Source of the DNA: a virus
Length of the DNA: 64,000 bases
Reading direction: 5' to 3' (one strand)
Virus record (IMG/VR): IMGVR_UViG_3300046820_001062
Location: 1 to 64,000 of that record
In this document: piece by piece, positions 19,059-49,052 of the stretch
Position numbering within the stretch: the stretch's first letter is position 1
Layout: the number at the start of each line of letters is the position of its first letter
The notes under the pieces: model-generated
Seen by the model: only the letters and a program-made list of their open reading frames with translations
What the model was told of the DNA's origin: nothing
Databases searched by the model: none
Program-made: the position numbers and the translations under genes

Positions 19059-19059
19059 A

Positions 19060-24612: not shown

Positions 24613-24632
24613 CCTCTATTATAATATAAGAA
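24613..24632 (-). promoter_or_regulatory. Candidate phage promoter motif copy C
   Basis: Minus strand TTCTTATATTATAATAGAGG upstream of the fibre operon. Confidence 0.45.
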
Positions 24633-24669
24633 ATAATCCAGAAATATCTATAAAATACTTCCAGAATTT

Positions 24670-24708
24670 AAGAATAACTGGTCACACTTGGCAACCAGTT
24701 ATATTCTT
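24670..24708. terminator. Long imperfect hairpin at the end of the cargo operon
   Basis: Minus-strand RNA AAGAAUA-UA-ACUGGUUGC-CAAGU-GUGACCAGU-UAUUCUU; U-tract weak on the coding strand. Confidence 0.5.
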
Positions 24709-27700
24709 ATTGTTTTGCTTTCATCTGATCTATCCTGTAGTTAGGATTAACTAGATCTCTAAAATTCTTAATACCTGTCAAATCCATCAGGTCTTTGCCA
24801 ATTTTAGCATCACCTTTTTGATATGCACCATATTTACGTCCATAGAATGCTTCTTTCCAAATGTCTTGATAAAACTGACTGTCATTATCAGGATCAGGTT
24901 CTTCTCCACCATTCATTGTCATAGCCATTCCATAGCTAATTGCATGAGAACCAAACTTTTTAAGGGCATTTAATTCTCTTGTATAGGAAGATACTGTGGT
25001 AAAGTTTCTAATGTATTCCTCAGAACCTCCACCAACTGGGAACATTGATACTGTTTCCCCTTTAACACCCCACAATACTCTAATAGCATTACCTTCAAGG
25101 AAACTTAATTCCTCATCATCATCATCTTTCTTTCTAACATAGTTTCTAGCCATCATTGATAGAATAGTTAGTATTAACATAGCAATAGCATCTCTTCTTG
25201 CTTGGTTTACCTTTCTTGTCAGAAAACTACCCATCTGATTCTTGTTGCTTTTTGACATTCTCTTGCTTCCTAGCAACAAATGTTTACCAACTTCTTGAGG
25301 GCCATATGCTTTCCAAGCTGTTGCCACTGCACTCCAGTAACCCATAGCTGCTTCAGAACCTTCCCAGTTTGGACGTAAGTATCCAAATCTGTTAAGTAAC
25401 TGAGGCACAAGATACTTTCTGAAGAAGAACACCATTTTACCAACCATGTTTTCTTCAAACTTAGTTTGGTCAGCTTTTGCATAGTTACCTTGAGCACGTC
25501 TCATTTCAGAGTAAATAATGTTTCTTACTCTGTTCTCATCATCTTGTGTGTACTCAACATCATTTCTTCTAATCATGCGTCCTTCTGAATCTTTCATGTA
25601 GATTTCATGAACAGGTACAGTTACGTCCTCACCATTAGCATCCTTCTTATAAACAGGTTTACCTTGACTATCATAACTATCGATAACTTTAAATCTGTGG
25701 TGATTCATTACAGCATACATTACAGTAACTGCAATTTCAGTATCACCTTTGTCTTGTAGCATATAGCCTAACTCTTGGACATTCAATGCTTTACCTTTAA
25801 GTCTGCGTCCTTTTGTTCCAGTAATTTCAGATACATACTTTAAGAAATCCTTTTGTGCAGGGTTAAAGAAACGATACAACATTGTAGAATCACTAACATC
25901 ACTTACCTTGCCCCAATCAGCAAAGTAGTTGTGCAAGAATCCATTGTATCCATATACTTTAGATTTAGCCCACATATAGTCAGCCTGTGTATACTTATCA
26001 CTTGCCAATCCACCTGCTGCAATAAATGCTTGTACGTTTCCTGAAATATAGTTCTTTGCCTGGTTGGCAACGTCAAAACCAATTCTAATAAAACTTGTGT
26101 ATGCAAATACTGCGTTCATTCTTTTGGTTAGCTTTCTATTCAAGTCGCTACCACTTTCTGTTTGACCATATAAAAACTTTCTACGTTCAAACTGAAGAAT
26201 GCTAATTACGTTTTTAAGTTCTGACAAACGTTTTGACATATCTATTTTTACGTCTTTGCCTGTTGCTTCATCCTTGATAAACATTGGTTTATCTTGCTGA
26301 ATGTTTTTCTGCAACTGCTCCGCCATAAATTCTAAATGTTCAATGTACATATCTGCTTGAGGAGCAACGTTTTGCATTGCAATATTATAATGAGCCTCTG
26401 TTGAATATTTTATAATTGAACCAATTGCATCTCTTGACTGTAAGTTTTCAGGTAATTGATCTGTAAATCTGTGTCTAATTTTAGAACCTAGATCACCAAA
26501 TACATTCTCAACAGCATCTTGTGAACCATATACCTTAACACTTTTGTCAATAAATTTCTGCCACTCAGCTTCAATAGAGTTTACCATTCCCTTACTAGAA
26601 ATATTTTCCACTGTTGAAGCAGCAAAACCTGGAACCTGATATCCAATCTTACGTCCTTCTGTCTTCATTTGTAAGTCAAAGAACATTTTCATGGTATCAT
26701 TATAGAAGCTGAATAACTCTTGATCTTTCATTAACTCCTTATATTTAGGATTAATATTAGGTGAGTTCTCATATCCAGGTGTTACAATGTAATGACCATC
26801 TTTGTTTTTACTAATAGCCTTTGGCATTGGTACACCATCTGGTGACTTCAAGAAATTAGGATTTTTTGAAGACTCTTTTAAACGTTTGATTTTGTATTTA
26901 GGATGAGGTACAGTTTCCATATACTTATCCTTTACAGTAGCAGCTGGTAACTTCTCAAAGTTATAGTTCTTTGGTACTCTATTATTTCTAATATCATACC
27001 CACTAAGAATGCTTTGATATTTATTATCATGGTGCATGTTATACCATTTTTCAAATTCTGCCTCTTGTAATCCAAATTGAGTTTCCTCAAAGATTAATTC
27101 TTCTTCCGCATCCTCAATAGCTTTTTTGTCACCAGATGTTCTAGCAACAGCAAGTTTATTTTCAGCTTCAATGATAGATCTTTGATGTGCATATAATGAT
27201 TTTACTTTTGATTCAAAAGCATCATTGTATGATTCACTCAATTGTAGTGATGATATTCTTTTGATTGCATCAGTTATTTCTCTTGATGCCTTCTTTTCTT
27301 CAGCAGTAAGTTTACCACCAGATTTAGAATTTTGCTCAATAATACTTTCAATTTCTGCATCTATTTCACTTAGTGTATCAATTTCAGATTGACTTAAATA
27401 TTGTGGTTTAATTCTTCCACCAATCTTATATGGTGAAAGTATGTCTCTACGCTTCTGCATCAAATCTGCAATCTCAGGATCAGATCCAAATATTGCAGCT
27501 CTTGCTTCATACAGAGCACTTAGTTCTTCATACCACTCAGAAGTAGGTTTAGTGACAGTGTTATCCTTTTTCCATTTTTCCCAAAGTTCAGGATGCTCTG
27601 ACTCATATCTAGACTTAGCATTAAACTGCATTCTTTCAAAGAAAGCTTGGTTAGTATCAAATTCAAATAGTGAGTTAAACTCATCTATCATATCTGCATA

Positions 27701-30604
27701 CTTTGGATTAAGTTCTTTTGCTTCAGCTCTTAACTTTTTAATTTCAATTTCCAGTTCTTGTAAGCGTTCAAAGTCATGATCCTCAAGTAATACTTCATTA
27801 CCTTTACCTACTTGGAAAGTAATGGTTTCAACTTCAAGATACTTTTCTTGCAACTTATCTTTGATATCATGAGGCATTCCAAGTTGTAGTTCATAGAACT
27901 TTTCATTAAATGGTAAGTGTGCATTATCCAACATCCATTTAATGTAATTAGTATTCTCTGCTTCTCTTTCAGATTGTTTTGCTAAAAGAGCATCTTTATA
28001 TTGTTGAGCATCTGCAGATTTAATGTTTTCATTAAACTTAATCTTAGCTTCATAAATCTCTTTATTCAACTGTCTGATTCTTGCACTAAATGCTCTGTAG
28101 GTATTCTCATATTCTTCACCAAAAGGTTTTGTCATATAAAGAATATTCTTTTCTACAGGGTTGCCATCTTTATCAATGCTAGTTGTTTTTCTCCATTCAG
28201 ACACTCTTTCATTTAGTTGTTCAACAGACATTCTTTTTAAAAGTGAATCTCTTTTCTGATCAAACTTCAATACTGCAAGGTTATTTTGAATTTCCATTCT
28301 AGCTAATCCTTCAGCATTTTTAAGCATCATTGTAAATGCAGCAATCTCAACACTACTATTTGAAGCAGACGCAATAGCTTTATCTAACATTAAGTTTTGT
28401 AACCAGCTATTACTATTAAAAGCTGTATTAGAACCCAAGTAAAGATTTGAGGTTGAAGTGGTTACGCCAGAAATATATCTTTCCAATGCAGCATCATCAA
28501 AGTCCAATCCACCATCAATGATAGCTTCTACTGTAAGTATTTGTCTTTCAAGTTTTTCAATCTCCAACATTAAACCTGGAGTATTGTCATTACCATCTTT
28601 TTCTAATTTCTCAGCAAGTTTTTGTTTATATTCCTTGCTCATAAATGAAAGCATAGATGACTTGACTGATTGAAAAATGCCATTAGCTTTACCAGCTTTT
28701 AGATTTTCAAGTTGCTTTTTCAATGTAATTAACTTTGCTTGCAATGCTTCTTTTACATCTGCATTTACTTCAGCAAACACTTTACTTCCAGGAGTCTTTA
28801 GAACTTGGATTGAATTGTGCATTGCTACTTTTGCAAAGTTTGACTGGATTCTAGCTAATGATGATTCCATCTCAGAAAGACGTTTCATCACTTCACTATC
28901 TACTGTTATATTGTTTTCAGGATTACTTCTAGCATCATCTACAATTTCTTTAATAATGTCTACTACAACATCCAAAGACTTAGATTTTTTATATGCTTCT
29001 AGAATCTGTACGCCTTCTTTTGACGTATAAGATTCCTTGTTAATTTTAAAGTTTGCAATTGCTTCATCAGATAATCTTGATAGAGTTTCCAAATCAATAC
29101 CCACAGACTCAATGGCCAAAGCTAAGTTCACTGAAAATTTTACATCCTCTGCTGATTGTGGTCTAGACAGAATAGCATTAAAGTCATTTAATGTTTTACG
29201 TCTTGTAGCAAGTATCTCTCTTAACGCTGGATTACTCTGATTAACATCAAGCTCTTTAATTTGCTTATTAATTTGATCTAACTCAGCATCTGCAATTTGT
29301 TTTAGTCTACTTCTTAGAGTTTCATCATTTTTAGATGTTGGTTCAAACTCTAATAGTTTTGCTTCCTTTTTAGCTTTTTCTTCTTCTTCAGTATCTGATG
29401 TAGGTATTTCTTTATCAACCACATCTCTCAAACTTTTAATCAGATCAGCTCCTCTAGTTGGATCAGCTACCCAATGCCCATTGTTATTTGGAATGTCTGC
29501 TGAACCTGCATAGTTGTAATAATTATCTTCATCAAATACATGTACTGTAGCTCCAACAAATTTTTTGTTATCATCTGTCTGATACATAAGAGCAACAATA
29601 GACTGAGCATTTACTTCTAGTCCACTTTGCTGTAAAATGTTCTCATATACTTTTAGCTGTAATGTCCATGTATCATATGCAGTTCTACCCTGACCTCTAA
29701 AAGCAGGTGAAGTTCCTTCTTTGTTAGACACAGGAAAAGATTTTTCTGCAAGATCTACAAATGCTAAGTCTTCATTTATAACTGGTTGACCAATTGGATC
29801 ATACTCAACAAGACGCTTTACTTTTTTAGTTTTAAAGTCAAATACACTTACACGTCCTTGAGTATCTACAAGCATCAAATCCAAACGTCCAATAACAGTA
29901 GTTCCAGTTCTGGTAGTACCTGTTACAGTAATCTCTGGAAGAATCATGTAACCTCTGTCATTATGTATTGATACGTGCATTGCTAAACGCTTTGCCATAT
30001 CAAACATTGTTGATTCATCCAAGTTTTCAATAAAGAAAGGATTCTTCTTTGTATAATTATTGTAGGCTTCTTTAAAGAAGTCTTCATCCACAATTTCAAA
30101 TATAGACTTTCCTGTATCCAAAGACTTGAGTTGACCTAACTCAAGAACCTCATGCATAAATGTTCCAAATAATTTAAATGCTTCATACTCTTTAGGATCT
30201 ACATTAAAGTCAGAAGACCCAATAAAGTTAGATACACTTACTGTTTTTACAGTTGGTTGTCCATTTTTTGCTAACTGAATATTTCTTCTTAAGAATTCTT
30301 GATAGTTATCATTCATTGAGATAAGCTGATCAATAGTATCTTTCTGTTTAGGATTAGCTTGGAACTTAAGTTTTTCTAAAGAAGTTCTTTGTTGGATCGC
30401 ACGTTGTAGTTTAAACTCATCAGAAGATCTAGATACTTGTTCATCCTTTTCTTCAACTTTAAGTTTGCTTAATAGTGCTTCAGCCTCTTCAACAGAAGGA
30501 GTATTGTTTCCATTTAAAGTATAAGCAGTCATAGCCTGACCTTCACCTAGTTTTTCTACTAGTTCTTTCCACTCAGGACTATTTGGATTTGGACATGTGT
30601 TCAT
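24707..30604 (-). CDS. Giant virion cargo protein (1965 aa) with N-terminal PD-(D/E)xK nuclease domain
   Basis: GTFMHEVLE...PE...GRLDLMLVD...FDFKT...QLKVY; long coiled coils; C-terminal hydrophobic helix AIAMLILTILSMMA; follows the RNAP gene. Confidence 0.8.
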   Translation of the reverse strand: MNTCPNPNSPEWKELVEKLGEGQAMTAYTLNGNNTPSVEEAEALLSKLKVEEKDEQVSRSSDEFKLQRAIQQRTSLEKLKFQANPKQKDTIDQLISMNDNYQEFLRRNIQLAKNGQPTVKTVSVSNFIGSSDFNVDPKEYEAFKLFGTFMHEVLELGQLKSLDTGKSIFEIVDEDFFKEAYNNYTKKNPFFIENLDESTMFDMAKRLAMHVSIHNDRGYMILPEITVTGTTRTGTTVIGRLDLMLVDTQGRVSVFDFKTKKVKRLVEYDPIGQPVINEDLAFVDLAEKSFPVSNKEGTSPAFRGQGRTAYDTWTLQLKVYENILQQSGLEVNAQSIVALMYQTDDNKKFVGATVHVFDEDNYYNYAGSADIPNNNGHWVADPTRGADLIKSLRDVVDKEIPTSDTEEEEKAKKEAKLLEFEPTSKNDETLRSRLKQIADAELDQINKQIKELDVNQSNPALREILATRRKTLNDFNAILSRPQSAEDVKFSVNLALAIESVGIDLETLSRLSDEAIANFKINKESYTSKEGVQILEAYKKSKSLDVVVDIIKEIVDDARSNPENNITVDSEVMKRLSEMESSLARIQSNFAKVAMHNSIQVLKTPGSKVFAEVNADVKEALQAKLITLKKQLENLKAGKANGIFQSVKSSMLSFMSKEYKQKLAEKLEKDGNDNTPGLMLEIEKLERQILTVEAIIDGGLDFDDAALERYISGVTTSTSNLYLGSNTAFNSNSWLQNLMLDKAIASASNSSVEIAAFTMMLKNAEGLARMEIQNNLAVLKFDQKRDSLLKRMSVEQLNERVSEWRKTTSIDKDGNPVEKNILYMTKPFGEEYENTYRAFSARIRQLNKEIYEAKIKFNENIKSADAQQYKDALLAKQSEREAENTNYIKWMLDNAHLPFNEKFYELQLGMPHDIKDKLQEKYLEVETITFQVGKGNEVLLEDHDFERLQELEIEIKKLRAEAKELNPKYADMIDEFNSLFEFDTNQAFFERMQFNAKSRYESEHPELWEKWKKDNTVTKPTSEWYEELSALYEARAAIFGSDPEIADLMQKRRDILSPYKIGGRIKPQYLSQSEIDTLSEIDAEIESIIEQNSKSGGKLTAEEKKASREITDAIKRISSLQLSESYNDAFESKVKSLYAHQRSIIEAENKLAVARTSGDKKAIEDAEEELIFEETQFGLQEAEFEKWYNMHHDNKYQSILSGYDIRNNRVPKNYNFEKLPAATVKDKYMETVPHPKYKIKRLKESSKNPNFLKSPDGVPMPKAISKNKDGHYIVTPGYENSPNINPKYKELMKDQELFSFYNDTMKMFFDLQMKTEGRKIGYQVPGFAASTVENISSKGMVNSIEAEWQKFIDKSVKVYGSQDAVENVFGDLGSKIRHRFTDQLPENLQSRDAIGSIIKYSTEAHYNIAMQNVAPQADMYIEHLEFMAEQLQKNIQQDKPMFIKDEATGKDVKIDMSKRLSELKNVISILQFERRKFLYGQTESGSDLNRKLTKRMNAVFAYTSFIRIGFDVANQAKNYISGNVQAFIAAGGLASDKYTQADYMWAKSKVYGYNGFLHNYFADWGKVSDVSDSTMLYRFFNPAQKDFLKYVSEITGTKGRRLKGKALNVQELGYMLQDKGDTEIAVTVMYAVMNHHRFKVIDSYDSQGKPVYKKDANGEDVTVPVHEIYMKDSEGRMIRRNDVEYTQDDENRVRNIIYSEMRRAQGNYAKADQTKFEENMVGKMVFFFRKYLVPQLLNRFGYLRPNWEGSEAAMGYWSAVATAWKAYGPQEVGKHLLLGSKRMSKSNKNQMGSFLTRKVNQARRDAIAMLILTILSMMARNYVRKKDDDDEELSFLEGNAIRVLWGVKGETVSMFPVGGGSEEYIRNFTTVSSYTRELNALKKFGSHAISYGMAMTMNGGEEPDPDNDSQFYQDIWKEAFYGRKYGAYQKGDAKIGKDLMDLTGIKNFRDLVNPNYRIDQMKAKQ

Positions 30605-30605
30605 A

Positions 30606-33600
30606 TTATAAGCACTTAATTTTATCTATAATTTGTTCATTTGACATTGTTGCTCTTAGGTTAGCAATCATACCTTGCGCTGCAGCTTTGAATACTTCTG
30701 GAGACATTCTCTTGCTACTTTCTGAATATAAAGAATTAACAACCTCATCAGTTAAATTTAAGTTCTCCATATCAATTTGCAACTGAGATTTAGTTGCAGG
30801 TTCCTGAGTTTGTTTTTCTGTAGATTCTGGTAGTGTTCCTACTGCTTCTTCAGACTTTTTAATCTCTGGTGCAATATACTCTAATTTTTCCTTACCTGAA
30901 ACATAATCCATATACTTCTTAGTATTCTCTTTTGTAAAACCAATTGGACTTAATGTTCCAGCTGTAAGTTGTGATGGAATTAATGCATATCTAGCAGACA
31001 TACCTTTGCTGATATATTCACCTCTACCAACAATAGAATTGATAACTGTTTTACCAAAACTGTTATTACTTATTTCATCATCTACACCCTGTAATAAATA
31101 CTTACTTCTATCTATAGAAATGATCAGTGGAAAATTGTACAATTCATTAATTGGATCATATTTAATACCCAATTTCTTACCAATTGCTTCAACAGTCTTT
31201 TTAGTTACTTGTACAATATCTTTTGGTACATCCATATTAAATTCCAATACTTCTACTGGTTTTTTATTTATAGTATCTACCAGTTTTACACTTGTCACAT
31301 CTCCTTCAGTAAATTGTCCAGTGATTCTTGAAATTACTTCTCTGGCAACAGCTCTTCGTTCTCTTTCTTTAGTACCTTCTTCAAACTGAAGTGATGTCAT
31401 TATATTTGACATGTTGTTTAATGATAGTCGTTCTGCAATTTTAATCTTGGTATTACCAACTTCTTTACTTGCAGCTTGAGCCATTTGAATAAACAACTCA
31501 TCAAATAAATCATAAACTTCTTTCTCAGTAATTTCTTTACCTAAAAACTCTTGAATAGCACTGATCAATTTGTAGCGATCACCTTTGGTTTCCTCAAGTT
31601 TAGAAATAAAGGTCTCAATGTAACCAGACAAATCTAATTGCATTTCAGGATTCATGTACTGTAAAAAAGATCCTGATTTATATTGCATACCAGTTTTTGC
31701 AAGTTCATGATAGAATAACTTCTTCATAAACATGTTTTCTGTTCTCAATAAGAAGTCTGCATCGTCAGATACTTCATCAGCAAGTTTACCTGAAATCTTA
31801 GACTTGTTAATCATCTTAAGACTTCTTTCATTCAAATAACCACCAGACTTTAAGAATACTTTGTTATCAGATACATCTGGTCTTAGTAACTGTAAGAATT
31901 TATTTTGAGGATACTTCTTTTGCATGTCCTCTAATTCTTTAGCTAACTCATTTGTAAACCAATATTCAGGAGTAAATGTATTAAGTAGATTCTGATCATC
32001 TTCCTTAATCAATGTATCCATTGTTGTACCAGTAATTCTACTTCCAGGCATTGACATTTGATACTTTCTCAAAGCCACAAAGCTTGTAATAATTTTTGCA
32101 ATGTTTGCTTGATCTGTAAATACAGTTTCAAATGACTTTTTAATTGGAGCAAAGAACTCTGTTCTTTCTAAGAATATTTTAGACGCTTGAGTATTTAAAT
32201 CTTCTATTGCCTCAAGTAATTGTGGCCATACTTGATTATTTTCAAAAATCTTATCACTTGACTCTTTTGTAAAAATACTTTCACCAGCTTCTAAGTTTCT
32301 TACATTAGTCAATAGCTTATCAAAATTAACAAAAGAAGGATTAAGCTTTTTAAATAAATCAATAATTGAACCTGCACGTTTGATATCAAATGTTTGTTGT
32401 GCTTGCTCTTTGTAAAGTTGTAACAAAATCATTTTTTGCTCAACTTCAGAAAGTTCTGTTCTGTTCAATACTTTTTCTGCAGCATTTTCCTCTGACTTAG
32501 ATTCTACAATAGCAGATACCTTATAACCAATATCAGTAGAAGATAATGTATTGTTAAGAATTGCTTTTGGATCTAGAGCTTTAGCATTAAAATCAATTAA
32601 GAGTTTATTCTTATTGATAATAATGTTATAAGGATTTGATCGTGGAGATATTAAACCTGCACTAATTAAGTTTGGAATAGCATCTTTATTTTCAGCAGCT
32701 AATAACTTTATCTGTTCTGCTACTTCATTATTTAAGAATTTGTATGCAGTAGCCATTGACTCACTGATAGCATATTTTGTAGACTGAACACTTTGCACTG
32801 CTTTTTTAATTTCAGGTATAAAGTTAAATCCAATAGCGAACTCAGGTGACATACCTACACCTATCATGGCAAGTGTAACACCAGCGTTTACTTCATTCAT
32901 TTGTAATGCTGCAGGAATAGGTTTCTTAGCACCATCCGCAAACATACCAAGAATGTTACCAATCAATGCTATAACACGTTGATCTTCAATGTTTAATGTA
33001 CCAAACTTATTAAAGTTTACTTGTTCTAAATTTGCATTTTTAAATGCCCAAACAACATTCTCAGGTTTTAATTCCAATCCATATTGAGATGCAAGAGCTA
33101 AGAACTTATTAATGTTTGCTGTAATACCAATACCATCTTTGTTCATAGCATTTCCTACTTTAGTAGAAACCACACCATCAGTTGTATACATATTGTACTT
33201 GGTAGAAAAATCTTTAATGTCAATACCAAATGCTTCTAAAATATCCTCAAAACGTTGAGTAGAAGATCTTTCATGAATGTACAAGAATTTATGTACAGCT
33301 TCGTTAGATACAATGTTTAACTTAGCTTGTAAGTTTTTGTTTTGGAATACAGGACGTACTGATAAAGCATAATTAGGATTTGCTTCAAATGCTTGAGCAC
33401 TTGTTGGTAATCCTAGTTTACTAAATGCTTGCAAAGTTGCAGCAACCTTAAGTCCTGCAAATGTAAAGCGTTTTGCTCTACTTACTTCTCTACCATATTT
33501 ATTTCTTTGATCACGTTTCTGTCCTAGTTCTTCATTATATTCACCTACCTCTTTACCTAAATCAATTCTATCTTGCAATGCTCTTCTGTCTGAAGGATTA

Positions 33601-36600
33601 ACTTCATTTCTTCTAATAGCATCAACAAATTCTTCTTTAGCTTCATCTCTTATCTCCATTAATTCCTCAATATCAATAACAAGATTGTCATAAGATTCTT
33701 TAAGTTCTGCAAAATTCATTGCACCATTGTAGTCAGACTCATCAAATCCTGAATGGTATAGAATACTTAAAGCTTCTTCAGTTATGTTGTAAGAATTATT
33801 TTCAAGCAATGCTTTTGTTTCTTTTTTAATTAAAGCTTTTAAGTCTGCATCCTTACTCATATACTGAACAAACTCAGCATACTTATTTAAGTTTGTGTTC
33901 TTTCCATCTTGATACTCACCATATAACTTAGGATTACCTGATAAGTCAAAGTAATGTGCAAATGTTTGACCATACAAAGCATCAACGTCAAAGTCAGAAC
34001 CTGCAAGTAAGTGTACAAAATGTGGTACAATTACACCATTAAGATTAGAACTATCAATAAAATCAACAACTTTGATTGCAATCATAGAACGCTTGTCCTC
34101 TGTAGGAATACGTACACCAAACATCTTAGTTAAGTTCTGCATGTAGAATCTCTCATGTGCAGCACTTTTAAACAAAGGTTTAGGCATAATTGCTTCTACA
34201 TAGTAAGTCTTAACTCCATTTACTTCTTCAACTGTTACACCAAGAGGTCTTGATTTTACATTAGGATAAGCTGAAGGATTCTTACGATATTGTTCTGTAG
34301 TAATAACATTTCCATTTTCATCTTCAAGTACATTATAACCAAAAGAAGAGATATGTATATTTTTGAAACCAGAACCTTTTTCATCTGTAACATGTTTTGA
34401 ATATTGTGAAAAGAAATAATACTCAAGCATGTTACGCACGCCAGGAAGATTTGCACTATGAACTGGCTTACCAGAAGCATCTACATCAAATAATTTTAAT
34501 GTTGCTGTAGGTGCACCTTGTTCTTCTAAACTTGTACGTATTAATGTAAATATTTTACCAACCTCAAAGTCACCATCTTTTCTCAAGATAGTTTTTAAGT
34601 TAGCTAAGTTAGATACACCAATTTCTTTTAATGTACTTTGATATTCTTCAAGAACACTTGCAATATTATCAATTGCTTTTTGCTCTGAAGCTGTAATACT
34701 TAAACCGCTTGCTTTAGCAATTTCTGCAAGATTAATTAAATCAGCAGCAATAAGGGCCTTGCTTTGTACAGAAAACTTAGCTTTATCCTTAACACCAGAA
34801 GTCTCTACTTGTAAAAACTTAAATTTATTATCTACTTGTAAAGAAGACATTGCAAGATTGATATAACTATCTGTGCCTGCAATTCTTTCTGCCTCTATCG
34901 CATAGTCAACAGGAAGCATTGTAGCATTTTTAGATGCAGTAGTATCCATAAGTTGATCAACTTGATGATACTCCATAGCATTTAAAATGTTATGTAATGT
35001 TTGACGATGAGGTAATGCTTTAAAGTATGTATGAATTTCTTCTACGTTCTTTGTAATTGCATTGTCAATATCTGTAAGTGCACCTAATTCACCAGCAAGA
35101 ACTAAATCTTGACGTTGTCCACGTAAAGAATAAATATCCATGTACAAACCATGAAGTGCATTATGAGCATCTTCTAAAGTTTGCCCAGCTTTTGGTGTAA
35201 GAATGCTTACATCATTTCTGTCAATATAGTTTTCAGATTGTTTATGATAACTATTTCTTGCTGCTGTAACAGTTTTCTTAGGGTTGTTTACAACCTTACC
35301 TGCTTCCATTACGCGTATTTCTGTTTCAGAAAGCTCACGGTAATGCTTAGCAATGAGAGAATGCAATATCTCAGGACTCAATCTACCCATAGATTCATGC
35401 ATATCAATTTGATGCATCAGCGATGAGATACTTTGTCCATCAAATATATCATACATTGATGTACCATAATCCTTAAGAATTTCTTCTCTTACAGATTCTG
35501 ACTCAATGCTTTCATCATTTATAACCTCCTGCTCAGAATAGTAGGGACCATATTGAGGATAGCTTTCATTTATGTAACCCTGTATGGTATTTAAGAACGC
35601 AACTTTGTGGTAACCTTCTTTCATTGTACTACCACCAGCTAATAACTTCTTATTACGCTTAAAGTAGTCAGTTGCATCCTTAACATTCATTGCAATATCA
35701 CCATCAATTATTTCATTGAAATGTAAAGCATTCATCCAGTTGTTAAAGAAAGCATCAGCAACTAATCCTCTCAAATCTGTTGCTGCTTCTAGTTTACCAC
35801 CAGCCTCATTATAATTCTCCTTTGTTTTCTGATAAAGGCCATCAATTGAAACTGCAGGCGCACTGTCAACTCTCAATACAGAAGGTATAAGAGTTGATGT
35901 ATAATAAGTAATAGGTTCTACTTCTGGACCACCAACACCTCTTGTGATTAATTCACCTTTGGCATTTCTTTGTTTTTGAGTAGTTTTTTGTAATATACCT
36001 AAATCAATAAGTTTGGTAGCATGCTTGTTTAATTGTTCTTTAGCATAATTTTCTAAAGTATCCAGTAATGCATCTTTTATTTCTTGATCAAGATCTTCAA
36101 ATGCAATACCCGCTTTTGCAAAATCTGCCAAACCAGTTTTAGTTTCATTAGATTCTAATTCTGGATTAGCACTGAAAAAATCTGCTATCTTATTAAACTT
36201 ATATGCTCTTAAAGATGAATCATCTGTAATAGCTTTAGATTTATCTTGACTATCTAACTTACCATTGTATTTATCAATTATTTTATTAGACTCTTTGTTG
36301 TCAAAGTTTTCTTTGTTCTCAGCACTTCTAGCCCACTCTTTAGCAATACGGTTGTATTCTTGTTTAACAACAGCTTCAAGAGTATCAACAATTTTAAGAC
36401 GTTTGTCAGCATTTAAAACTAATCCTTTAGAATTAGCAAATTGATTATATAATGCTGTTACCAAGAAGTTTGTTTGAGATGCTTCTAACTGAGAAAATGA
36501 ACGTACATAGGTTTGAATTTTTGTAGCTACATCTTTTACTTTTCCATTTTCATCTAACTCTTGTCTAAAACTAGACTCAGTTGTTCTCTGTAAGAACGTA

Positions 36601-39600
36601 AGAATGTTTGTAATGTATAAAGACTTCTCATCAATATTTTTAAAACTCTTTCCTTCTTTTTGTTTTTCACCAATAGTTTGAGACACACCTCCAAACAATG
36701 ATACTTTGAAGTTGTCCATAAACAATTTCATTTCTTTTGCCTTTTGGGTATCTAATCCTTTAAGTAAATCACCTAACATTGCATTATCTGCATAGAATGA
36801 TTCTAAGAAATCTGCATAAAAAGGATCTTCTTTTAAAGTTTCAAGTAAACCTTTTGTACGTATTGACTGAGCAATAATAGTTGCAGGTGTGTAACTTACA
36901 TATCTATAGATAGGTTTACCCTCTGCATTACGTACAGTACTTGGTAATTCATTAGGATCATATTTAACAATGTACTCTGCTGCTTTTTTAATAATGGAGT
37001 TAAAGCGATTAACTGTATCACTCTTGCTGTTCTTTTCATCTAGTAATACTGCAAAGTCATTTGAAGAGATTTTGTTTATACTTATCTTTTCAAAAATATT
37101 AATTACATCAGTAAAGAAATCCTTTTCCAAATACTTCTTCTCAGAAATAAATTTAGAGTGATTATTGTAATGTGTAAGTGGAGTACCTGTAATATTTAAA
37201 GTTGCTTTATTATCAACTTGATCAATTGCCATAATTGACATTCTAATCAAAGATTTAGGAAACTTCATGCCTACATCTTCAAAAGCTTTTTGTAACTCAA
37301 TAGTAATACTTTCTAGTTTTGCATTTTGAGATGTAACATCACTTAAAATAAAACTACTAGTTTTAATTGTACGTGATAACTGTAACAGTTTATCTACAGC
37401 AGCTAAGTACTCTGGATTGTTTTTATTTTCTTTGTACTTCTGAATAACAGAAGTAACTAAATTTCTTTTCTTATTATTAACATCCTGAGAATGTACTTTA
37501 TCAACAAGAGTAAAGTTTCTTGTATCAGTAAGAACTTCATCACCTTCTAAGAATGTTTGAGTTGTTTTAACATCAATCATGACATAATCAATCTCAGTCT
37601 TGTGTAAGACATCAACTATCATGTTGTATAATTGCTTGTTAGATTGAGGCACTCCTGACTCATCCATTTTTGTGTAGCGATTCAACTTATCATAGACAGC
37701 CATTAAATCACTACCAGCACTTGTATAGCCATCCTCAATTTGTTGTTGAGCAATAACTTTGATGTGCTCAATAATATTCTTAGGATCTATTTCAGCAGAT
37801 ATTTTAATAAGAGAACCAAATACTTGTTCACCAGCAATCATTCTAGGAACTTTAATTCCTAATGTTGGATGAACTTGGTCATATCTTACTACCGCTAAGA
37901 ACTTTCTAATCTGTCTTGGTAAAGACTCTAAAGCGTTGATCTCATTAAATGAAGCATCAAAATCAGAAGATTCTGGAACTTCTTGTTGGTCTTCAGCATC
38001 GTCATTTGCAATAGTATTTTCATTTGCACCTGACAATTCTTTTTCAATAACATCTTTATCAGAAGATTTTTCACTACCGTCAAGAATTGAATTAATTTTA
38101 TCAACTTGTTCTTTGACCTGCTTTTTAAGCATTTCATAAGATACTTGACCCAGGTGATTGTCTTGTAATTCTTCTTCACCATATACTTTAACAGAATTGT
38201 TTTTGTTAAATCTGTTATCATAAGATGGATTATCAGTTGTATTTAAATCATACAATGCTTCACCTTTTGCTCTAGCTCCCAACATAAATCTGTAGTTAGC
38301 ATACAAAGGGCCCATTGTTTTAATTACCTTTTCTTTTAATTCAGGATTAGACTTAAACAATTCTGCATTTGTCCTTAGCAAAACATCCATGTTATACTCA
38401 TAGTCCAATACAAGTTGAGCAATCCTATCAAACTTAGTAGAGAATGATTCTTTTTGCCCATCTTCTATTACATAACCCGCTAACATGTTTACAAGTTGAT
38501 CTTGGTCTGCTTTAGACAAGACACTTGTTTTTTGACCAACACCAGCTGGTGTGGATACAATTTGTTTAAGACCTGGAATCAACTCATAAGCAACCTGTCC
38601 ATCATATATACCAGAAGAGATTACTTCATTTCTGTATTGACCATTTTTAATTTTACCATAAACATTGTCAATGTAGTCTCCTTTAGATGTAAACATTGCC
38701 AATAGCTTTTTAAGCATAGCCATAAACTGACCAAGAATACCTTTTGGTTTAGTATTCTTTAACATATAGTTTTGGAATCCATCAGCTAGAATCTCTTCTG
38801 CTTGCAGGCGCGTCATTTCTTCTTTGTTATAAACATAGTTACGTTGACGTGCAAACTCTTTTAGAGCACCTTCAGTAAACTTATTAGCATGCTTTTTATT
38901 ACTTGTAACTGCATTAATAAGATTTTGTCTTTCCTCAGAATTCATTAAGAATCTGAATACACCATGAAAAGCTTCATGATAAATTACACCTTGTCCTTTT
39001 AGTGCATTATTCAAATAAATAACTTTATCTTTAAATGCACCTAGTACAGTTCCGTCTAATTTAGTAAGATCAATTACATCAGCTAAAGATTCATTATCAA
39101 TTAAGAATTGTGGTAATGCTTGTGCTAACCATTCAGAAGCAGCAAGTCTTTGTTCAGCTGTTTCAACAATAACATTTGCATCATCTGTTAAAGAGAACAC
39201 CTCAATGTCAGGAATATCTGTAGTGTCTTCTTCAATTGTATTTAAAGGTTCTTGTTTGTGAATCTTTTCACTCTCTACAATTGGAGCAATTACTTCTTGT
39301 GTTTTAGTAACCTGTGCAACAGCAGCTTTTGGAACTACTGTAAATTTCTTACTACTAGCTTGTAATATTTTAAAGTTTGCAAGATCTTCACGATACTCTT
39401 TACGCTGAGCAGGTTGAGCATATTCTATTCTAGGATATAATACACCAGACTCATCAGTATCAGCTACTAATAGCTCAGGTCTATAAACCCCATTAAATGT
39501 AAAATCTCTTTTTAATTGTTGTACAAACTCTGGGAACATTGTTGTTCTTTCAGCAAGTTTGTTTATAATATTATCAACTAAATATTCTGCAAACTCTTTT

Positions 39601-41927
39601 TGAGCTTTTTCAATACTATCACTTAATTGTTTTAAAATAAGAAGAGCTGTTTCTGAATTACTCAACTTATTTACTTGCTCATAGAATGCAACTAAATCTG
39701 TGGTGTTTGTTAAATCTAAAGTTTTTAAAGCAGGATATGCTTCTCTTACTTGATTTACAAGAGGACCTTTTCCAATTAATGCTTTAGCTAAATTTGTTAT
39801 AACAGCTTCATTAACAGGAAAATTAAACTGATTTTTATTTTCAGGTTCAGCAATAAAACCATAAGGACCTTGTTTGTCCATTGGTCTAATTTCTATTTGT
39901 AACTGTCCTGCTTTTGATGTTGCAAAGTTTACACGCAATGGTGCTTTGTTATCATCATTTGGTCCTTGTTTTGCTTTGTTGTAAAACTTGAATCCATATG
40001 CATTTCTATCAAAATTTCTGATATCACCAGCTCTGTTTGCTGATGTTTGAAGAATATTTGCTAGAGATACAATAAACTTTGCAAACTCTACTTGCTGAGA
40101 CATCTGTAATACAGGAGCAATACTTCTGTATCCAATTGTTCCATCAGCATTAAAACGCAACAGGATATTTAACTGATTACCATGTTCTGGTTTAACTATT
40201 TTACCTTGTATCTCAGAAGGATTGATACCTAATACATCACTTGCATACACCTCTTGAGAAACTGTAGCACCATTCTCTAATTGAATTAGTTGTCCTTTTG
40301 CTAAAAATGGTTTAAGTATGTAAGGATCATTTTTAACTTTTGTATAAATAAAAGGAACACTGATTACTTCTGAGTTTACTATTGCACCATTAACCATTGT
40401 TACAACTGTCAATGGTTTTGACAAAGTTGTATCTAATTCTATCTCATCTTTTAGTAATTGCTTTTTGCTGATATCTGTTCTTTTTGAATTAGCTTCATAA
40501 GAATTAAAAAATTCAGTAGTAACATCAATTGAGTTATCAGATGTACCAGCAACCTTATCAGAAATACTTGATTTAAAAACTTGAAATAATTTGTTAGACT
40601 CAGACATTGACATAACATCTGTATCAGTTAAGGATTTATTTCCTTCTTTTGTATTCTTTACGGCAAGAGTTTTAACCAATGCCAAATGTTCTGGGTTTGA
40701 AAAGTCAACTCTCTCTGTTGTATTATCACTACTAACAAATACAAAGTTGTCAGAAGAATACATGTAAAATTTTTCACCGCTGCCAATAATCTCACCAACA
40801 AGAACAAATTGTTGTTCACTTGCTTTAGGTCTAGAAACAGTCATGATCTTCTTAGTGGAAGATGCTTGCAACGCTTTTATTTGTGTAGCGTTTTCAAATG
40901 TTTCATGTTCTCTGTTTTCAAGGGAAGAATACTTTGGATTTTGTTTTGCTGCTTCCTGGATACGTTCAACCCTTCTATCTGCAACATCACTTAATTTAAC
41001 TGCATGAATTTTAATACCAGCTTGTGGATTTTTCATGTTAGCTAATTTCTTTTCTAATTCAAATTGATCAGCTGAATCAACTGCTTTAATTGAAAAACTA
41101 GAAAGAAGTGTGTGTTCTTGGAATACTTGTTCCCCAGCATTACTTTTTGAGTTATCTGCAACGCGTGCGTCTTTTGCTGCAAGAATTTGTGAAGAATCAA
41201 TTGTTTGCAAAGATCCATCACTTGTAATAACTTTAAATTGTTCATCTTGTCTTACTCCTTCAACCATTTGACCATTTGTCAAAGTGATTAATACATTATT
41301 CAAATCTGCTAGATTAGCAATATCTGACAATGGAATAAAACTAGATGATTTCCTTAAAGAGTTTATCGCTTCATCAACCTGCTTGATTAAAAAATCTTTA
41401 TGAGCTTGAGGAGAATCATGTTCTATAATTGCGTTCTTAATTGCTGTAGAAAATTCATTTAGCAATTGTTCTCTTTCCTCATTTGTTGGAAAAGCTGTAA
41501 TACTAAAATAGTTTTTAACAGATGTAAGAATACCTTCAGAAGAAATTAAGTCCTGACGTGTTATGTTCTTTTTAGTAGATAATTTGTCAATTGCTTTAGA
41601 AATGCTTTCAACTTTTAAAGGTGAAGGCTTTTTAACGCCTAACATTTCACTGACTGTTGATACATAATTTGATGCATCATCCATAAGTACTACAGCACTG
41701 ATAACGCCTTCAGCATTTCCAGGATTGTAAAACTCACTATCAATACCTGCTAAACCCTTATAAATATAAGCCATGTTATGCAGTGACATCATCTTTTGTT
41801 CAGGAGTCAGTGCACTACCAAGTATAAACTTTGAAGCATTATCAAAGTTATTATATACTGAAGGGTCTAGTTTAATTAAGTTAAGTACAACTGAAGTGTA
41901 CTTGTCAGTTTGTATTTGACATGCCAT
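30606..41927 (-). CDS. crAss-like single-chain virion RNA polymerase (3773 aa) with zincin motif
   Basis: Catalytic GSDFDVD (DFDVD codons 33981-33995) preceded by FGVRIPT; HEAFH (38964-38978) with downstream AEEILAD. Confidence 0.88.
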   Translation of the reverse strand: MACQIQTDKYTSVVLNLIKLDPSVYNNFDNASKFILGSALTPEQKMMSLHNMAYIYKGLAGIDSEFYNPGNAEGVISAVVLMDDASNYVSTVSEMLGVKKPSPLKVESISKAIDKLSTKKNITRQDLISSEGILTSVKNYFSITAFPTNEEREQLLNEFSTAIKNAIIEHDSPQAHKDFLIKQVDEAINSLRKSSSFIPLSDIANLADLNNVLITLTNGQMVEGVRQDEQFKVITSDGSLQTIDSSQILAAKDARVADNSKSNAGEQVFQEHTLLSSFSIKAVDSADQFELEKKLANMKNPQAGIKIHAVKLSDVADRRVERIQEAAKQNPKYSSLENREHETFENATQIKALQASSTKKIMTVSRPKASEQQFVLVGEIIGSGEKFYMYSSDNFVFVSSDNTTERVDFSNPEHLALVKTLAVKNTKEGNKSLTDTDVMSMSESNKLFQVFKSSISDKVAGTSDNSIDVTTEFFNSYEANSKRTDISKKQLLKDEIELDTTLSKPLTVVTMVNGAIVNSEVISVPFIYTKVKNDPYILKPFLAKGQLIQLENGATVSQEVYASDVLGINPSEIQGKIVKPEHGNQLNILLRFNADGTIGYRSIAPVLQMSQQVEFAKFIVSLANILQTSANRAGDIRNFDRNAYGFKFYNKAKQGPNDDNKAPLRVNFATSKAGQLQIEIRPMDKQGPYGFIAEPENKNQFNFPVNEAVITNLAKALIGKGPLVNQVREAYPALKTLDLTNTTDLVAFYEQVNKLSNSETALLILKQLSDSIEKAQKEFAEYLVDNIINKLAERTTMFPEFVQQLKRDFTFNGVYRPELLVADTDESGVLYPRIEYAQPAQRKEYREDLANFKILQASSKKFTVVPKAAVAQVTKTQEVIAPIVESEKIHKQEPLNTIEEDTTDIPDIEVFSLTDDANVIVETAEQRLAASEWLAQALPQFLIDNESLADVIDLTKLDGTVLGAFKDKVIYLNNALKGQGVIYHEAFHGVFRFLMNSEERQNLINAVTSNKKHANKFTEGALKEFARQRNYVYNKEEMTRLQAEEILADGFQNYMLKNTKPKGILGQFMAMLKKLLAMFTSKGDYIDNVYGKIKNGQYRNEVISSGIYDGQVAYELIPGLKQIVSTPAGVGQKTSVLSKADQDQLVNMLAGYVIEDGQKESFSTKFDRIAQLVLDYEYNMDVLLRTNAELFKSNPELKEKVIKTMGPLYANYRFMLGARAKGEALYDLNTTDNPSYDNRFNKNNSVKVYGEEELQDNHLGQVSYEMLKKQVKEQVDKINSILDGSEKSSDKDVIEKELSGANENTIANDDAEDQQEVPESSDFDASFNEINALESLPRQIRKFLAVVRYDQVHPTLGIKVPRMIAGEQVFGSLIKISAEIDPKNIIEHIKVIAQQQIEDGYTSAGSDLMAVYDKLNRYTKMDESGVPQSNKQLYNMIVDVLHKTEIDYVMIDVKTTQTFLEGDEVLTDTRNFTLVDKVHSQDVNNKKRNLVTSVIQKYKENKNNPEYLAAVDKLLQLSRTIKTSSFILSDVTSQNAKLESITIELQKAFEDVGMKFPKSLIRMSIMAIDQVDNKATLNITGTPLTHYNNHSKFISEKKYLEKDFFTDVINIFEKISINKISSNDFAVLLDEKNSKSDTVNRFNSIIKKAAEYIVKYDPNELPSTVRNAEGKPIYRYVSYTPATIIAQSIRTKGLLETLKEDPFYADFLESFYADNAMLGDLLKGLDTQKAKEMKLFMDNFKVSLFGGVSQTIGEKQKEGKSFKNIDEKSLYITNILTFLQRTTESSFRQELDENGKVKDVATKIQTYVRSFSQLEASQTNFLVTALYNQFANSKGLVLNADKRLKIVDTLEAVVKQEYNRIAKEWARSAENKENFDNKESNKIIDKYNGKLDSQDKSKAITDDSSLRAYKFNKIADFFSANPELESNETKTGLADFAKAGIAFEDLDQEIKDALLDTLENYAKEQLNKHATKLIDLGILQKTTQKQRNAKGELITRGVGGPEVEPITYYTSTLIPSVLRVDSAPAVSIDGLYQKTKENYNEAGGKLEAATDLRGLVADAFFNNWMNALHFNEIIDGDIAMNVKDATDYFKRNKKLLAGGSTMKEGYHKVAFLNTIQGYINESYPQYGPYYSEQEVINDESIESESVREEILKDYGTSMYDIFDGQSISSLMHQIDMHESMGRLSPEILHSLIAKHYRELSETEIRVMEAGKVVNNPKKTVTAARNSYHKQSENYIDRNDVSILTPKAGQTLEDAHNALHGLYMDIYSLRGQRQDLVLAGELGALTDIDNAITKNVEEIHTYFKALPHRQTLHNILNAMEYHQVDQLMDTTASKNATMLPVDYAIEAERIAGTDSYINLAMSSLQVDNKFKFLQVETSGVKDKAKFSVQSKALIAADLINLAEIAKASGLSITASEQKAIDNIASVLEEYQSTLKEIGVSNLANLKTILRKDGDFEVGKIFTLIRTSLEEQGAPTATLKLFDVDASGKPVHSANLPGVRNMLEYYFFSQYSKHVTDEKGSGFKNIHISSFGYNVLEDENGNVITTEQYRKNPSAYPNVKSRPLGVTVEEVNGVKTYYVEAIMPKPLFKSAAHERFYMQNLTKMFGVRIPTEDKRSMIAIKVVDFIDSSNLNGVIVPHFVHLLAGSDFDVDALYGQTFAHYFDLSGNPKLYGEYQDGKNTNLNKYAEFVQYMSKDADLKALIKKETKALLENNSYNITEEALSILYHSGFDESDYNGAMNFAELKESYDNLVIDIEELMEIRDEAKEEFVDAIRRNEVNPSDRRALQDRIDLGKEVGEYNEELGQKRDQRNKYGREVSRAKRFTFAGLKVAATLQAFSKLGLPTSAQAFEANPNYALSVRPVFQNKNLQAKLNIVSNEAVHKFLYIHERSSTQRFEDILEAFGIDIKDFSTKYNMYTTDGVVSTKVGNAMNKDGIGITANINKFLALASQYGLELKPENVVWAFKNANLEQVNFNKFGTLNIEDQRVIALIGNILGMFADGAKKPIPAALQMNEVNAGVTLAMIGVGMSPEFAIGFNFIPEIKKAVQSVQSTKYAISESMATAYKFLNNEVAEQIKLLAAENKDAIPNLISAGLISPRSNPYNIIINKNKLLIDFNAKALDPKAILNNTLSSTDIGYKVSAIVESKSEENAAEKVLNRTELSEVEQKMILLQLYKEQAQQTFDIKRAGSIIDLFKKLNPSFVNFDKLLTNVRNLEAGESIFTKESSDKIFENNQVWPQLLEAIEDLNTQASKIFLERTEFFAPIKKSFETVFTDQANIAKIITSFVALRKYQMSMPGSRITGTTMDTLIKEDDQNLLNTFTPEYWFTNELAKELEDMQKKYPQNKFLQLLRPDVSDNKVFLKSGGYLNERSLKMINKSKISGKLADEVSDDADFLLRTENMFMKKLFYHELAKTGMQYKSGSFLQYMNPEMQLDLSGYIETFISKLEETKGDRYKLISAIQEFLGKEITEKEVYDLFDELFIQMAQAASKEVGNTKIKIAERLSLNNMSNIMTSLQFEEGTKERERRAVAREVISRITGQFTEGDVTSVKLVDTINKKPVEVLEFNMDVPKDIVQVTKKTVEAIGKKLGIKYDPINELYNFPLIISIDRSKYLLQGVDDEISNNSFGKTVINSIVGRGEYISKGMSARYALIPSQLTAGTLSPIGFTKENTKKYMDYVSGKEKLEYIAPEIKKSEEAVGTLPESTEKQTQEPATKSQLQIDMENLNLTDEVVNSLYSESSKRMSPEVFKAAAQGMIANLRATMSNEQIIDKIKCL

Positions 41928-41955
41928 ACTTTTATATTCTTTGATTTTACGAAGA

Positions 41956-44900
41956 TCAAGAGAAACAATCTGTTATCTTCCTCAATTCATCTAAAATTGA
42001 TTCTTCAGTAACAATACCTCCCTCTACAAATTTACTACTTTTTTCTGATACTTGCTGCATTTCAGCGGTACTAATTACACCTTGAATTTGCTTATGTAAT
42101 GTTTGTAAACTTTCAAGAGTTAAACTTGCAGAAGTTGCAGGTGATACAGTTGTGTCAAACAAAGTTGGTTGTGATTCATCAGACTTTGTTACAATAACAG
42201 CTTTTGGTTTACCATACTTTATAGGTTGACCTGTAATAACAGATTCTCTAATTGCAGTTAATAACTCTTTACCTTTTGGTGTTTTATAATACTCCTCAAG
42301 AGTTTCAAAACTTGTTTTGTTCATGCTGTTAAATCTTTTCATTGATTTCATAGCACGATCATGCATTTCAACAATCTTAGAGTTTTCTGAAAGATCTTCT
42401 AACATTGGAGAAATGAATTGTTTAGCAAACTCAAGATTTAATCTTGTAGCATTCAAACTGTCAGAAAGCTGTTGAGCTTCTTGTTCACTTTCAAACTTTT
42501 CAGATGTTACAGGAGTATTGCTTTTATCTACAACATCAAAACCAGACTCAGTTGTACCATCTACTACAAATGGTTCTTCATTTTCAACAGGTTGAACACC
42601 CATTAATCCAGCAAGCATGCTTGATACATCTTGAGCACCTACACCATCTGTACCCTCTTCTGTCACAGGTTGAACTGCAACAGGTTGTTCTACAGGAGTC
42701 AATGTTTCAACTTCTGTTTCAATAGGAGTTGGTTCTTCAACAATCTCACCGTTCTCATCTACAAAAGGAACAGGAGCTTCTTCTTCTACTTGATCACCAC
42801 CGTTTATAGGAACTCTTGAAATCAACTCACCATCAGGTCCAACCTCTGGTAAATCTTCTTGATTTGCAGTAATGATTGGTTCTTCTGTTACAGGTTCCTT
42901 AGATTTTTGCTCTTTAACTTCATTATCAAAGTCATCTTTAAACATGTTATAAACCTTTTCTTCATTAGGAAGTAAAGGTTGATTCTTAACTAGTTTGTCA
43001 AGAATAACAAATTTTCTAACACTTGCATCATCTAATGCTCCGGCAGCAATGATTTCATCTAACTCTTCTACTGACAAATCAGATAAGCCATCAGATTTAT
43101 ATTTTGCAATACCTTCTTTAACTGCAGTTTTAATAGTTTCATTTATCTGCTCTGATAACTTTTGAGCATACTCAGCATTTTCAATACCAACATTTGGATC
43201 TACAGCTAACGTGAGGATATTGTTATAAGCCTCACTAGAAGTTACAGCTGTTTCAATATCAGCTAGAAGATTTACATACTCTTGTTGATTTAAACCTAAT
43301 TCAATAGCAGCTGTCATTGCTGCAGTAGAGTAGCGTGCTGATACAGTATCTACATAAGTAATCAACTTATGCTTGAACTTACCATCAGCCATTCTTGCCA
43401 ATGCTCTTTGAAAGTTTTCTGGATTCATCAATACATCTACTGACCTCATATAGTCTTTAGTATCTTGATCCAATCTCATGTAATCATAGACTTTCTCAAA
43501 AGAATCTCTAACAGTTTGTTCTGTCAATTCAGTGTTGTTACCAGCTTGTTTGTTTTTAATAGCCATTAACTTTCTGAATGTATCTAAAACTTCAGGATGA
43601 TCTATGCTATATACTTCCTCATTTCTTTTTGTTTTAACGCCATTTTCATCCTCCTGTTCAGTTGTATCTAAATACTTCTGACCAACAAATAAGTTAGATT
43701 CATCTTCAGTAATATCTTCACCTTCAGCATTTTTACCTATAACATTTTTTCTAGTATCCCAAAATGTTTTCCATTTGTTAACTAATGCAAGTTCCTCCTG
43801 TTTATTTTTAATTTGTTCAGCAAGTGCTTTTTTAGCTTCAGGTTCAATACCTTCAGCCTGTATGTTTGTATTTAAAATTTTAAGTTCAGCTATAATATTT
43901 CCCACTTCAGCATCTACTGATCCAGCATTTGTCAATGTTCTTAATGCAAAGTCAGCTGAAACACCCATGTTAGGCATTGCCAATATTTCACTGGCTACTT
44001 GCTTTGCACGATTTGAAGTCATCTCACCTTTTACAGTATTCAATGCAATTACCTGAATCGCATCTTCTTGAGCTTGTCTTGTTATACTTGTAACATATCT
44101 ACCTCTTGATCCTTCTGAATAAGCTATAGGATTAGCTAGTTTATTTTTAACATGACTTGTCACGTTATCAATAGTGTCAGAATACTTTTTAATATCTCTA
44201 GCTACTGCTTCAGAAAACTCTTGAGCTGTAGCATATTTTGTGTTTTCTAATTTATAACCAAATGATTTTTCAAAATCTTCTGCAGTCATGTCTACACCCA
44301 TATCTTTAACAGCTTTGTAAAGCATGTCAATTGAATGTGTACGTTTAGCACTTGCTACTGCAGATAATAATGAATTGTCTTTACCATTTTCAAAATCATA
44401 TCTTGAACCTTGTGCTGCTGCTTGTGCGACTTCTTGAGCAGCAGTCATTTGAGCATTAAAGTTAAATACTTTTTGTTCAAACTTACCTTCGTGAGCTTGT
44501 TTGAACAATGAGTTCATTTGTGATAAATCATCATCTAATTGTTTTTCAGCCTTTAAAATAGGATTTGAAGTAGGATCATTTTTGTATTGATTACTTATTA
44601 CAGCCCTATTTGCAGCATCCAAAGATCTTGATGCTACAGCTGTTGGGAGTCTAATAACAGAACCTGTTAACGCACCCATTAAGAATGTTTTTAAACCTTG
44701 TTTTGTAAACTGCTCTTCAGCTCCTTTTTCAAATGCTTCTGACAATGCGTACTTTGTACCATTCATTTGCCCAGCATAATAATCACGCCACCCAGCAGCA
44801 GTTGTTTCTTGTAAGTTTTCCTGAAGACCTTCTACAATTTCAAACTTAAGAGCATCTTTAAAGAACGCTTTACCAAATTGGTATGCTGCTTCTTTTTTGC

Positions 44901-49023: not shown

Positions 49024-49052
49024 GTGATATTTCTACTTTACTTTTAATTAAA

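Follow-up and report, generated by a model that had tools for sequence, protein, structure and literature searches.

We found that three giant proteins encoded by consecutive minus-strand genes of a crAss-like phage keep cysteine (Cys) only at the termini that face one another in gene order, and that the pairing, which follows gene architecture, has been retained across the order Crassvirales as well as outside it. The window analyzed (positions 1-64,000 of IMG/VR virus record IMGVR_UViG_3300046820_001062, to which coordinates refer unless another genome is named; the whole phage record spans 123.7 kb) encodes, as judged by homology, the RNA-polymerase cargo block of a freshwater phage. The three proteins are hereafter called A (1474 amino acids, aa), B (3773 aa) and C (1965 aa), 7212 aa in total. 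The pairing of terminal Cys is a real feature of these families. As to its meaning, we consider it probable (roughly 0.72) that the two Cys of each pair are joined by a disulfide between the proteins once the virion is mature, which would make A-B-C one nearly linear thread. Such disulfides, from A to B and from B to C in a chain of ~7200 aa, had been proposed in an initial annotation of this DNA; the proposal is now supported by the invariance of the Cys, by the way in which they follow split and fused genes, by the predicted docking at the first junction and by a solved bond in cyanopodophage A4, and it is from these lines that we infer the bond in the present phage.

Facing cysteines in the window and its relatives

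Translation, with the codons re-checked, revealed that the sole Cys of A is residue 1472 (41965-41967; protein end ..ITDCFS), that B has Cys only at residues 3 (41919-41921, MACQ..) and 3772 (30612-30614, ..KIKCL), and that the sole Cys of C is residue 4 (30593-30595, MNTCPN..). The outer ends of the trio are Cys-free and the upstream 874-aa protein has no Cys at all, exactly as the initial annotation had described. Based on the Cys frequency of the whole phage genome (1.02%), ~74 Cys would be expected in the 7212 aa of the three proteins, in comparison with the four observed. Given the Cys count of each protein, the chance of finding them so near the facing termini is ~3.5e-12. Among 128 other non-redundant open reading frames (ORFs) from the same operons in relatives, Cys occurred in the first 8 residues of 3/128 and in the last 6 residues of 0/128. 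On the other hand, the suggestion that the ends themselves resemble each other fared poorly: hhalign matched the two C-terminal motifs over no more than 11 columns (E 0.05), which is not statistically supported, and no likeness of the two N-termini could be detected.

Comparison of homologues revealed that the terminal Cys are invariant in the A, B and C families down to 25-35% identity. First, in the A family, Cys was located at position -3 or -2 from the C-terminus in 50/50 homologues, and it was the sole Cys in 49/50. Second, every full-length B homologue had Cys at both ends, at residue 3 or 4 and at the last or second-last residue (C3 and C3772 were invariant among 27 aligned homologues), and the Cys was kept between B clades whose C-terminal motifs are wholly different (..KIKCL and ..DPTDENNC). 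Third, C proteins started with M-x(1-6)-C in 83/83 full-length homologues, down to 25% identity, mostly with P-N thereafter and most without any other Cys. Finally, we performed a census of junctions using profile-guided retrieval from IMG/VR, with both genes on the same contig and junctions made non-redundant. The Cys pair was present at 29/29 A|B junctions, in all of which A contained exactly one Cys, and at 40/40 B|C junctions, where the Cys of B was located at -1 to -5. The counting of Cys in orthologous trios that the initial annotation had suggested thus revealed the pair at gene breaks and no pair at fused junctions.

The surroundings of these Cys were much less constant. In relatives, the length of the A|B spacer ranged from -1 to 32 nucleotides (nt), the Cys codon of A was either TGT or TGC, and the flanking residues were variable, which suggests that selection acts on the cysteine itself and not on a nucleotide signal. 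Such a signal at gene boundaries (in translational coupling, as a promoter or through RNA structure), with the Cys codons as its by-product, would fit the tight packing of the genes: only 1 nt separates the stop codon of B from the start codon of C, and in one relative stop and start overlap (GTGA). However, the Cys is placed 1-15 residues before the stop and 3-8 residues after the start, a variation also seen in the spacer and the codon, other junctions of the same operon are equally tight and have no Cys, and the pair survives at 25% protein identity. Thus, a nucleotide signal appears to be a very improbable cause of the pattern.

Split and fused genes

Every split chain junction in the IMG/VR relatives was Cys-paired, whereas the fused junctions (A-B and B-C) and the two outer ends were without Cys. 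A-B fusions were found in Suoliviridae cr55_1 and cr118_1, in cr108_1 and in 15 IMG/VR lineages. The fusion ORFs (2500-4415 aa) have no N-terminal Cys and are usually Cys-free for up to 4200 residues; those with a readable end have a C-terminal Cys, after which the next protein starts with M-x-C. B-C fusions occur in Leptolyngbya phage Lbo-JY46 and in nine genomes of Intestiviridae, p-crAssphage and crAss002 among them; they retain the A|B pair, and their C-terminus is free of Cys. Additional breaks follow the same pattern. B is divided once more in 12 loci, and there the middle piece (B2, 149-744 aa) contains two Cys and no others, one at residue 3 or 5 and the second at -2. A single genome has a divided C; Cys flank the new break on both sides, and the middle piece (C1) has Cys at each end. 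Here (L142, reverse strand 2970-3000), the start codon after the 384-aa piece is a GTG overlapping the stop codon of that piece (GTGA), and the downstream protein, when read from this GTG, begins with (M)TCQL, so the Cys pair holds at the extra break as well.

The A|B break itself has different positions in different lineages. In the window, a zincin metalloprotease motif lies in B; the homologous motif is found at residue 2157 of gp47, the protein A of crAss001, likewise in protein A of p-crAssphage, and at residue 2001 of the A-B fusion of cr55_1; the HExxH zincin segment of gp47 matches B with an E value of 3e-7. Judged by the position of this motif, the break is displaced by more than 1000 residues between lineages. 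It falls on different sides of the zincin domain in the clade of the window and in crAss001, and it is flanked by Cys in both.

Cultured phages have the same arrangement. In phi14:2, the only Cys of gp67 is the last residue, those of gp66 are residues 3 and 2179, and that of gp65 is residue 3. In crAss001, Cys is located at residue 2339 of gp47, at residues 5, 1334 and 2404 of gp50, and at residue 5 of gp49. The terminal pattern of IAS virus is as in these two phages, and the rule is obeyed by gut Intestiviridae and Suoliviridae as well as by the Leptolyngbya phage. With regard to gene starts, an internal M-S-C start in crAss002 (16077) and cr110_1 (16050) agrees with all relatives, and the annotated starts of their RNA polymerases are probably 32 and 14 codons too far upstream, respectively.

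A partial exception was observed in cr116_1 (13272-27983), in which a 215-aa gene and an 833-aa protein are located between the gp50-like and gp49-like genes. As annotated, the 833-aa protein ends in Cys and has no N-terminal Cys, giving three C-terminal and two N-terminal Cys. An alternative start that would rescue the pairing was ruled out by in-frame stops directly upstream of the annotated ATG. Such an odd count would fit a reading in which each terminal Cys has a separate partner (such as the portal, the inside of the capsid, a second copy of its own protein or a lipid), with the pairing at junctions a by-product of Cys placed at the inner termini; the lone near-C-terminal Cys of Intestiviridae cargo-1, which has no obvious partner in the next gene, points in the same direction. 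However, Cys numbers match across the junctions in all 29 A|B and 40 B|C cases, middle pieces have Cys at each end (the twelve B2 pieces exactly those two) and outer ends never do, and the termini of the first junction are predicted to dock with each other. Separate partners are therefore an improbable explanation.

Predicted docking and a possible disulfide thread

For the A|B junction, we co-folded the C-terminal 120 aa of A and the N-terminal 200 aa of B, using alignments built solely from the window and the fetched loci. The median interaction prediction score from aligned errors (ipSAE) was 0.69 (0.64, 0.71 and 0.69 in the individual runs), in comparison with 0.01 for the best of three controls. 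The ipSAE mark was reached by 58/80 solved complexes and by 2/110 mismatched pairs, counts that are only rough here, as own alignments were used. The contact agreement between runs was at least 52%, and the predicted local distance difference test score (pLDDT) of the partners was at least 51. In the predicted complex, the C-terminal helix of A runs antiparallel to helix 7-20 of B, and both Cys-bearing tips belong to the interface set (residues 102-119 of the A fragment; residues 2-5, 7-20, 22, 34-48 and 54-63 of B). In the C-terminal segment of A, L1466, I1469, C1472 and F1473 were invariant across 35 homologues. An AlphaFold2 model of the N-terminal domain of B (pLDDT 82.9) consisted entirely of helices, its first four residues, Cys3 among them, being disordered (pLDDT <50). 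These models support docking of the C-terminal helix of A on the N-terminal domain of B.

Such docking is what the co-fold would back whatever the chemistry of the two Cys. It might be entirely non-covalent, with the pair sitting in the interface as a two-thiol metal bridge or as packing residues, reversible and independent of redox state; this would also suit the fact that assembly takes place in the reducing cytoplasm and that gut crassviruses live without oxygen. However, Cys alone is invariant while all the flanks change, and a packing role would tolerate other residues. In addition, two thiols by themselves are ill suited to binding a metal, and they are not joined by any conserved His, Asp or further Cys. 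An equivalent pair has also been seen as a disulfide: in the pre-ejectosome of cyanopodophage A4 (Anabaena phage A-4L), gp26 accommodates the C-terminal helix of gp27, which a Cys1715-Cys5 disulfide holds in place, as resolved by cryo-electron microscopy (PNAS 2025, PMC12002296; gp26 = PDB 9K3A). We therefore regard non-covalent docking as unlikely. An intein or autoproteolysis reading was ruled out, since split genes require no cleavage and fused junctions are without Cys. All three alternatives, namely a nucleotide signal, separate partners and non-covalent docking, fit the data less well than inter-protein disulfides.

Several observations nevertheless weigh against the disulfides. Gut crassviruses live without oxygen, so there is no evident place for the oxidation. 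The co-fold, which covered the first junction (A|B) only, provides model confidence and is no measurement. Apart from the unmatched C-terminal Cys of cr116_1, the C-terminal Cys is less strictly terminal in some relatives, lying 9 residues from the end in crAss001 gp50 and 15 in L075. The A4 proteins have no detectable homology to A, B or C (BLASTP E >0.1; hhalign probability <1%), and the A4 precedent is thus an analogy: the block in the window would work like the A4 pair while belonging outside its families. Similarly, the N-terminal domain of B had no Foldseek match in PDB at E <= 0.001, and a PDB profile search gave chance-level matches only. A bond between terminal Cys is unmentioned in the papers on crAss001 and phi14:2, and gp47, gp49, gp50 and disulfides are likewise absent from the text of the crAss001 supplement. 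Disulfides as such do exist in crassvirus virions, having been reported in the crAss001 tail (PMC10172136), and that study included a non-reduced sample in its mass spectrometry. No thioredoxin gene was found in the genome of the phage itself, and we therefore make no claim of a phage-encoded reductase.

If the pairs are disulfides, the following sequence of events may be envisaged. At assembly, the C-terminal helix of each protein would dock on the N-terminal helical domain of the next, as predicted for A with B, and docking would bring both thiols together. Outside the reducing cytoplasm, the pairs would then oxidise, yielding a near-linear covalent thread of ~7200 residues. The placement of Cys at the extreme termini would keep the thread unbranched, which could permit unfolded passage through the narrow tail channel, with each protein pulling in the one after it in the order of the genes. 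Once in the reducing cytoplasm of the host, its thiol systems could cleave the links and free the polymerase and its partners. A broader version, to which we would give slightly less than even odds, is that the whole RNA-polymerase cargo of Crassvirales and related phages is one near-linear covalent polymer (5000 to >8000 residues) in which terminal disulfides replace peptide bonds. The genes could then be cut or fused anywhere provided that the ends are capped by Cys, and the polymer would precede the DNA through the tail, drawn along in the order of its genes. Reducing systems of the host would then take it apart, releasing the polymerase with redox timing and no protease.

Crassviruses are the most abundant phages of the human gut. 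How their giant proteins (150-430 kDa, including an RNA polymerase) traverse a narrow tail into the cell has been an open question since the structural atlas of crAss001 appeared. A rule by which such proteins are tied end to end would provide a concrete means of delivering them in order and of freeing them within the host cell. Such a rule would also explain why genes are freely fused and split between families, and why odd residual Cys persist in proteins otherwise purged of them. Because phi14:2 and crAss001 obey the same rule, the idea is directly testable in cultured phages.

The cargo block and comparable systems

The assignment of the block was based on similarity to known crassvirus proteins (features are listed in Table 1). 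B shares 25-38% identity with the RNA polymerases of crAss002, p-crAssphage and crAss001 (tblastn and BLASTP), and its DFDVD motif is also present in crAss001 gp50, p-crAssphage gp44 and phi14:2 gp66; by these matches B is a virion RNA polymerase, distantly related to those of crAss phages, with a zincin domain. C matches phi14:2 gp65 (E 2.7e-5), the B-C fusion of Lbo-JY46 (E 6e-6) and crAss001 gp49 (E 8e-4). The relationship of A to crAss001 gp47 and phi14:2 gp67 is weak and transitive only, via a 1552-aa protein of Lbo-JY46 (E 1.6e-10), and a tblastn search of A against the phage collection gave no match. Searches of the trio against PHROGs and Pfam produced a sole match, the PD-(D/E)XK domain in C. 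It has been verified by mass spectrometry that gp67, gp66 and gp65 of phi14:2 are virion proteins (phi14:2 preprint) and that gp47, gp50 and gp49 of crAss001 are cargo proteins (PMC10172136); both trios are thought to be ejected. By homology to these proteins, A, B and C are most likely packed in the virion and injected. The phage DNA was present mostly in freshwater and aquatic metagenomes, from about eleven studies.

Table 1. Features of the cargo block, in window coordinates
Feature	Position	Strand	Description
Two upstream cargo-like proteins	46399..52493	(-)	874 aa (no Cys) and 1146 aa (Cys 793, 839); outside the Cys chain
Protein A	41956..46380	(-)	1474 aa; putative first link of the chain; ORF and homology; counterpart of crAss001 gp47 (N-terminal part) and phi14:2 gp67
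C-terminal clasp of A (putative)	41959..42015	(-)	Residues 1456-1474, IVTEESILDELRKITDCFS; predicted amphipathic helix, then Cys1472
A-B spacer	41928..41955	(-)	28 nt
Protein B	30606..41927	(-)	3773 aa; virion-type RNA polymerase by homology, putative middle link; 25-38% identity to crAss RNA polymerases
N-terminal docking domain of B (predicted)	41739..41927	(-)	Residues 1-63; Cys3 on a flexible tip ahead of helix 7-20
HEAFH zincin metalloprotease motif	38964..38978	(-)	B residues 984-988
DFDVD catalytic motif, RNA polymerase	33981..33995	(-)	B residues 2645-2649
C-terminal clasp of B (putative)	30609..30644	(-)	..SNEQIIDKIKCL; contains Cys3772
Protein C	24707..30604	(-)	1965 aa; putative last link; counterpart of crAss001 gp49 and phi14:2 gp65
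N-terminal clasp of C (putative)	30560..30604	(-)	MNTCPNPNSPEWKEL; contains Cys4
PD-(D/E)XK nuclease-like domain of C	29819..30190	(-)	Residues 139-262; Pfam PF12705, E 1.8e-5, above the curated cut-off

The order of the two upstream cargo-like genes is that of crAss001 gp45-gp46 before gp47, and the junction between the 874-aa protein and A has a terminal Cys on neither side. The 1146-aa protein, which is cargo-1-like (49053-52493, minus strand), has its two Cys ~46 residues apart; a similar spacing was found in many relatives (791/837, 786/829, 829/871 and 852/887) and no such pair in others, and the two residues may form an internal disulfide or a metal site. Cargo-1 homologues of Intestiviridae contain a single conserved Cys near the C-terminus (2-11 residues away; ..SCR, ..[FR]CGG..), to which no N-terminal Cys in the next gene corresponds; this Cys may form a homotypic link.

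Further upstream lies a 1998-aa virion structural protein, and tail fibre proteins are encoded downstream. The cargo and fibre block (19060-52493) contains 7 Cys in ~11000 aa, in sharp contrast with outer structural proteins, which are Cys-rich (24 Cys in 303 aa at 13418-14329 and 26 in the 1998-aa protein at 57132-63128, minus strand). Downstream of the tail fibre genes, a 170-aa ORF (12567-13079, minus strand) has its only Cys as the last residue (..NVVDC); it had no PHROG match and no partner was identified. In addition, an identical 130-aa ORF is present at 252-644 and at 122510-122902, i.e. at both ends of the 123.7-kb record, which suggests terminal redundancy or the assembly of a circularly permuted genome.

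Among the closest known systems are the homologous trios gp67-gp66-gp65 of phi14:2 (gp66 = PDB 6VR4) and gp47-gp50-gp49 of crAss001, which share with the window the gene order, a DFDxD polymerase in the middle and an identical terminal-Cys pattern. They differ in the size of the polymerase (2180 and 2412 aa, respectively, against 3773 aa for B), in the location of the zincin motif, which is in B here instead of A, and in the PD-(D/E)XK-like domain of C in the window. The phi14:2 preprint describes the three proteins as fusible in some phages and leaves their cysteines unmentioned, and the crAss001 atlas, which reports the tail disulfides, contains nothing on covalent links among gp47, gp49 and gp50 (PMC10172136).

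Schitoviridae (N4 gp50 and DEV gp71-gp73) also possess a giant ejected virion RNA polymerase with partner proteins in which Cys is strongly suppressed, and this suppression has been explained as the avoidance of unwanted disulfides on the way in (PMC11445570). There, however, suppression is complete and the polymerase is a single polypeptide, whereas the proteins in the window keep a minimal set of Cys precisely at the junctions between them.

The initial annotation had held that no such system was described. This should now be limited, since one such link, the gp27-gp26 bond of A4, was published in 2025; a search of the crassvirus literature found no paper describing a terminal-Cys chain, and a multi-link chain with an RNA polymerase was not found there. 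In the A-4L record, gp27 and gp26 are adjacent genes whose only Cys are located 3 residues from the C-terminus of gp27 and at residue 5 of gp26. The A4 pair thus resembles the trio in the window in having facing terminal Cys in the products of adjacent genes, and its geometry is that predicted for A with B. On the other hand, A4 is a 42-kb T7-like podophage of another family with a single link and no RNA polymerase, and its bond was presented as a local stabiliser, with no rule that tracks gene fusion and fission (PMC12002296). By analogy, our results suggest that the single disulfide of A4 might exemplify a principle that applies more widely to phage proteins that are ejected.

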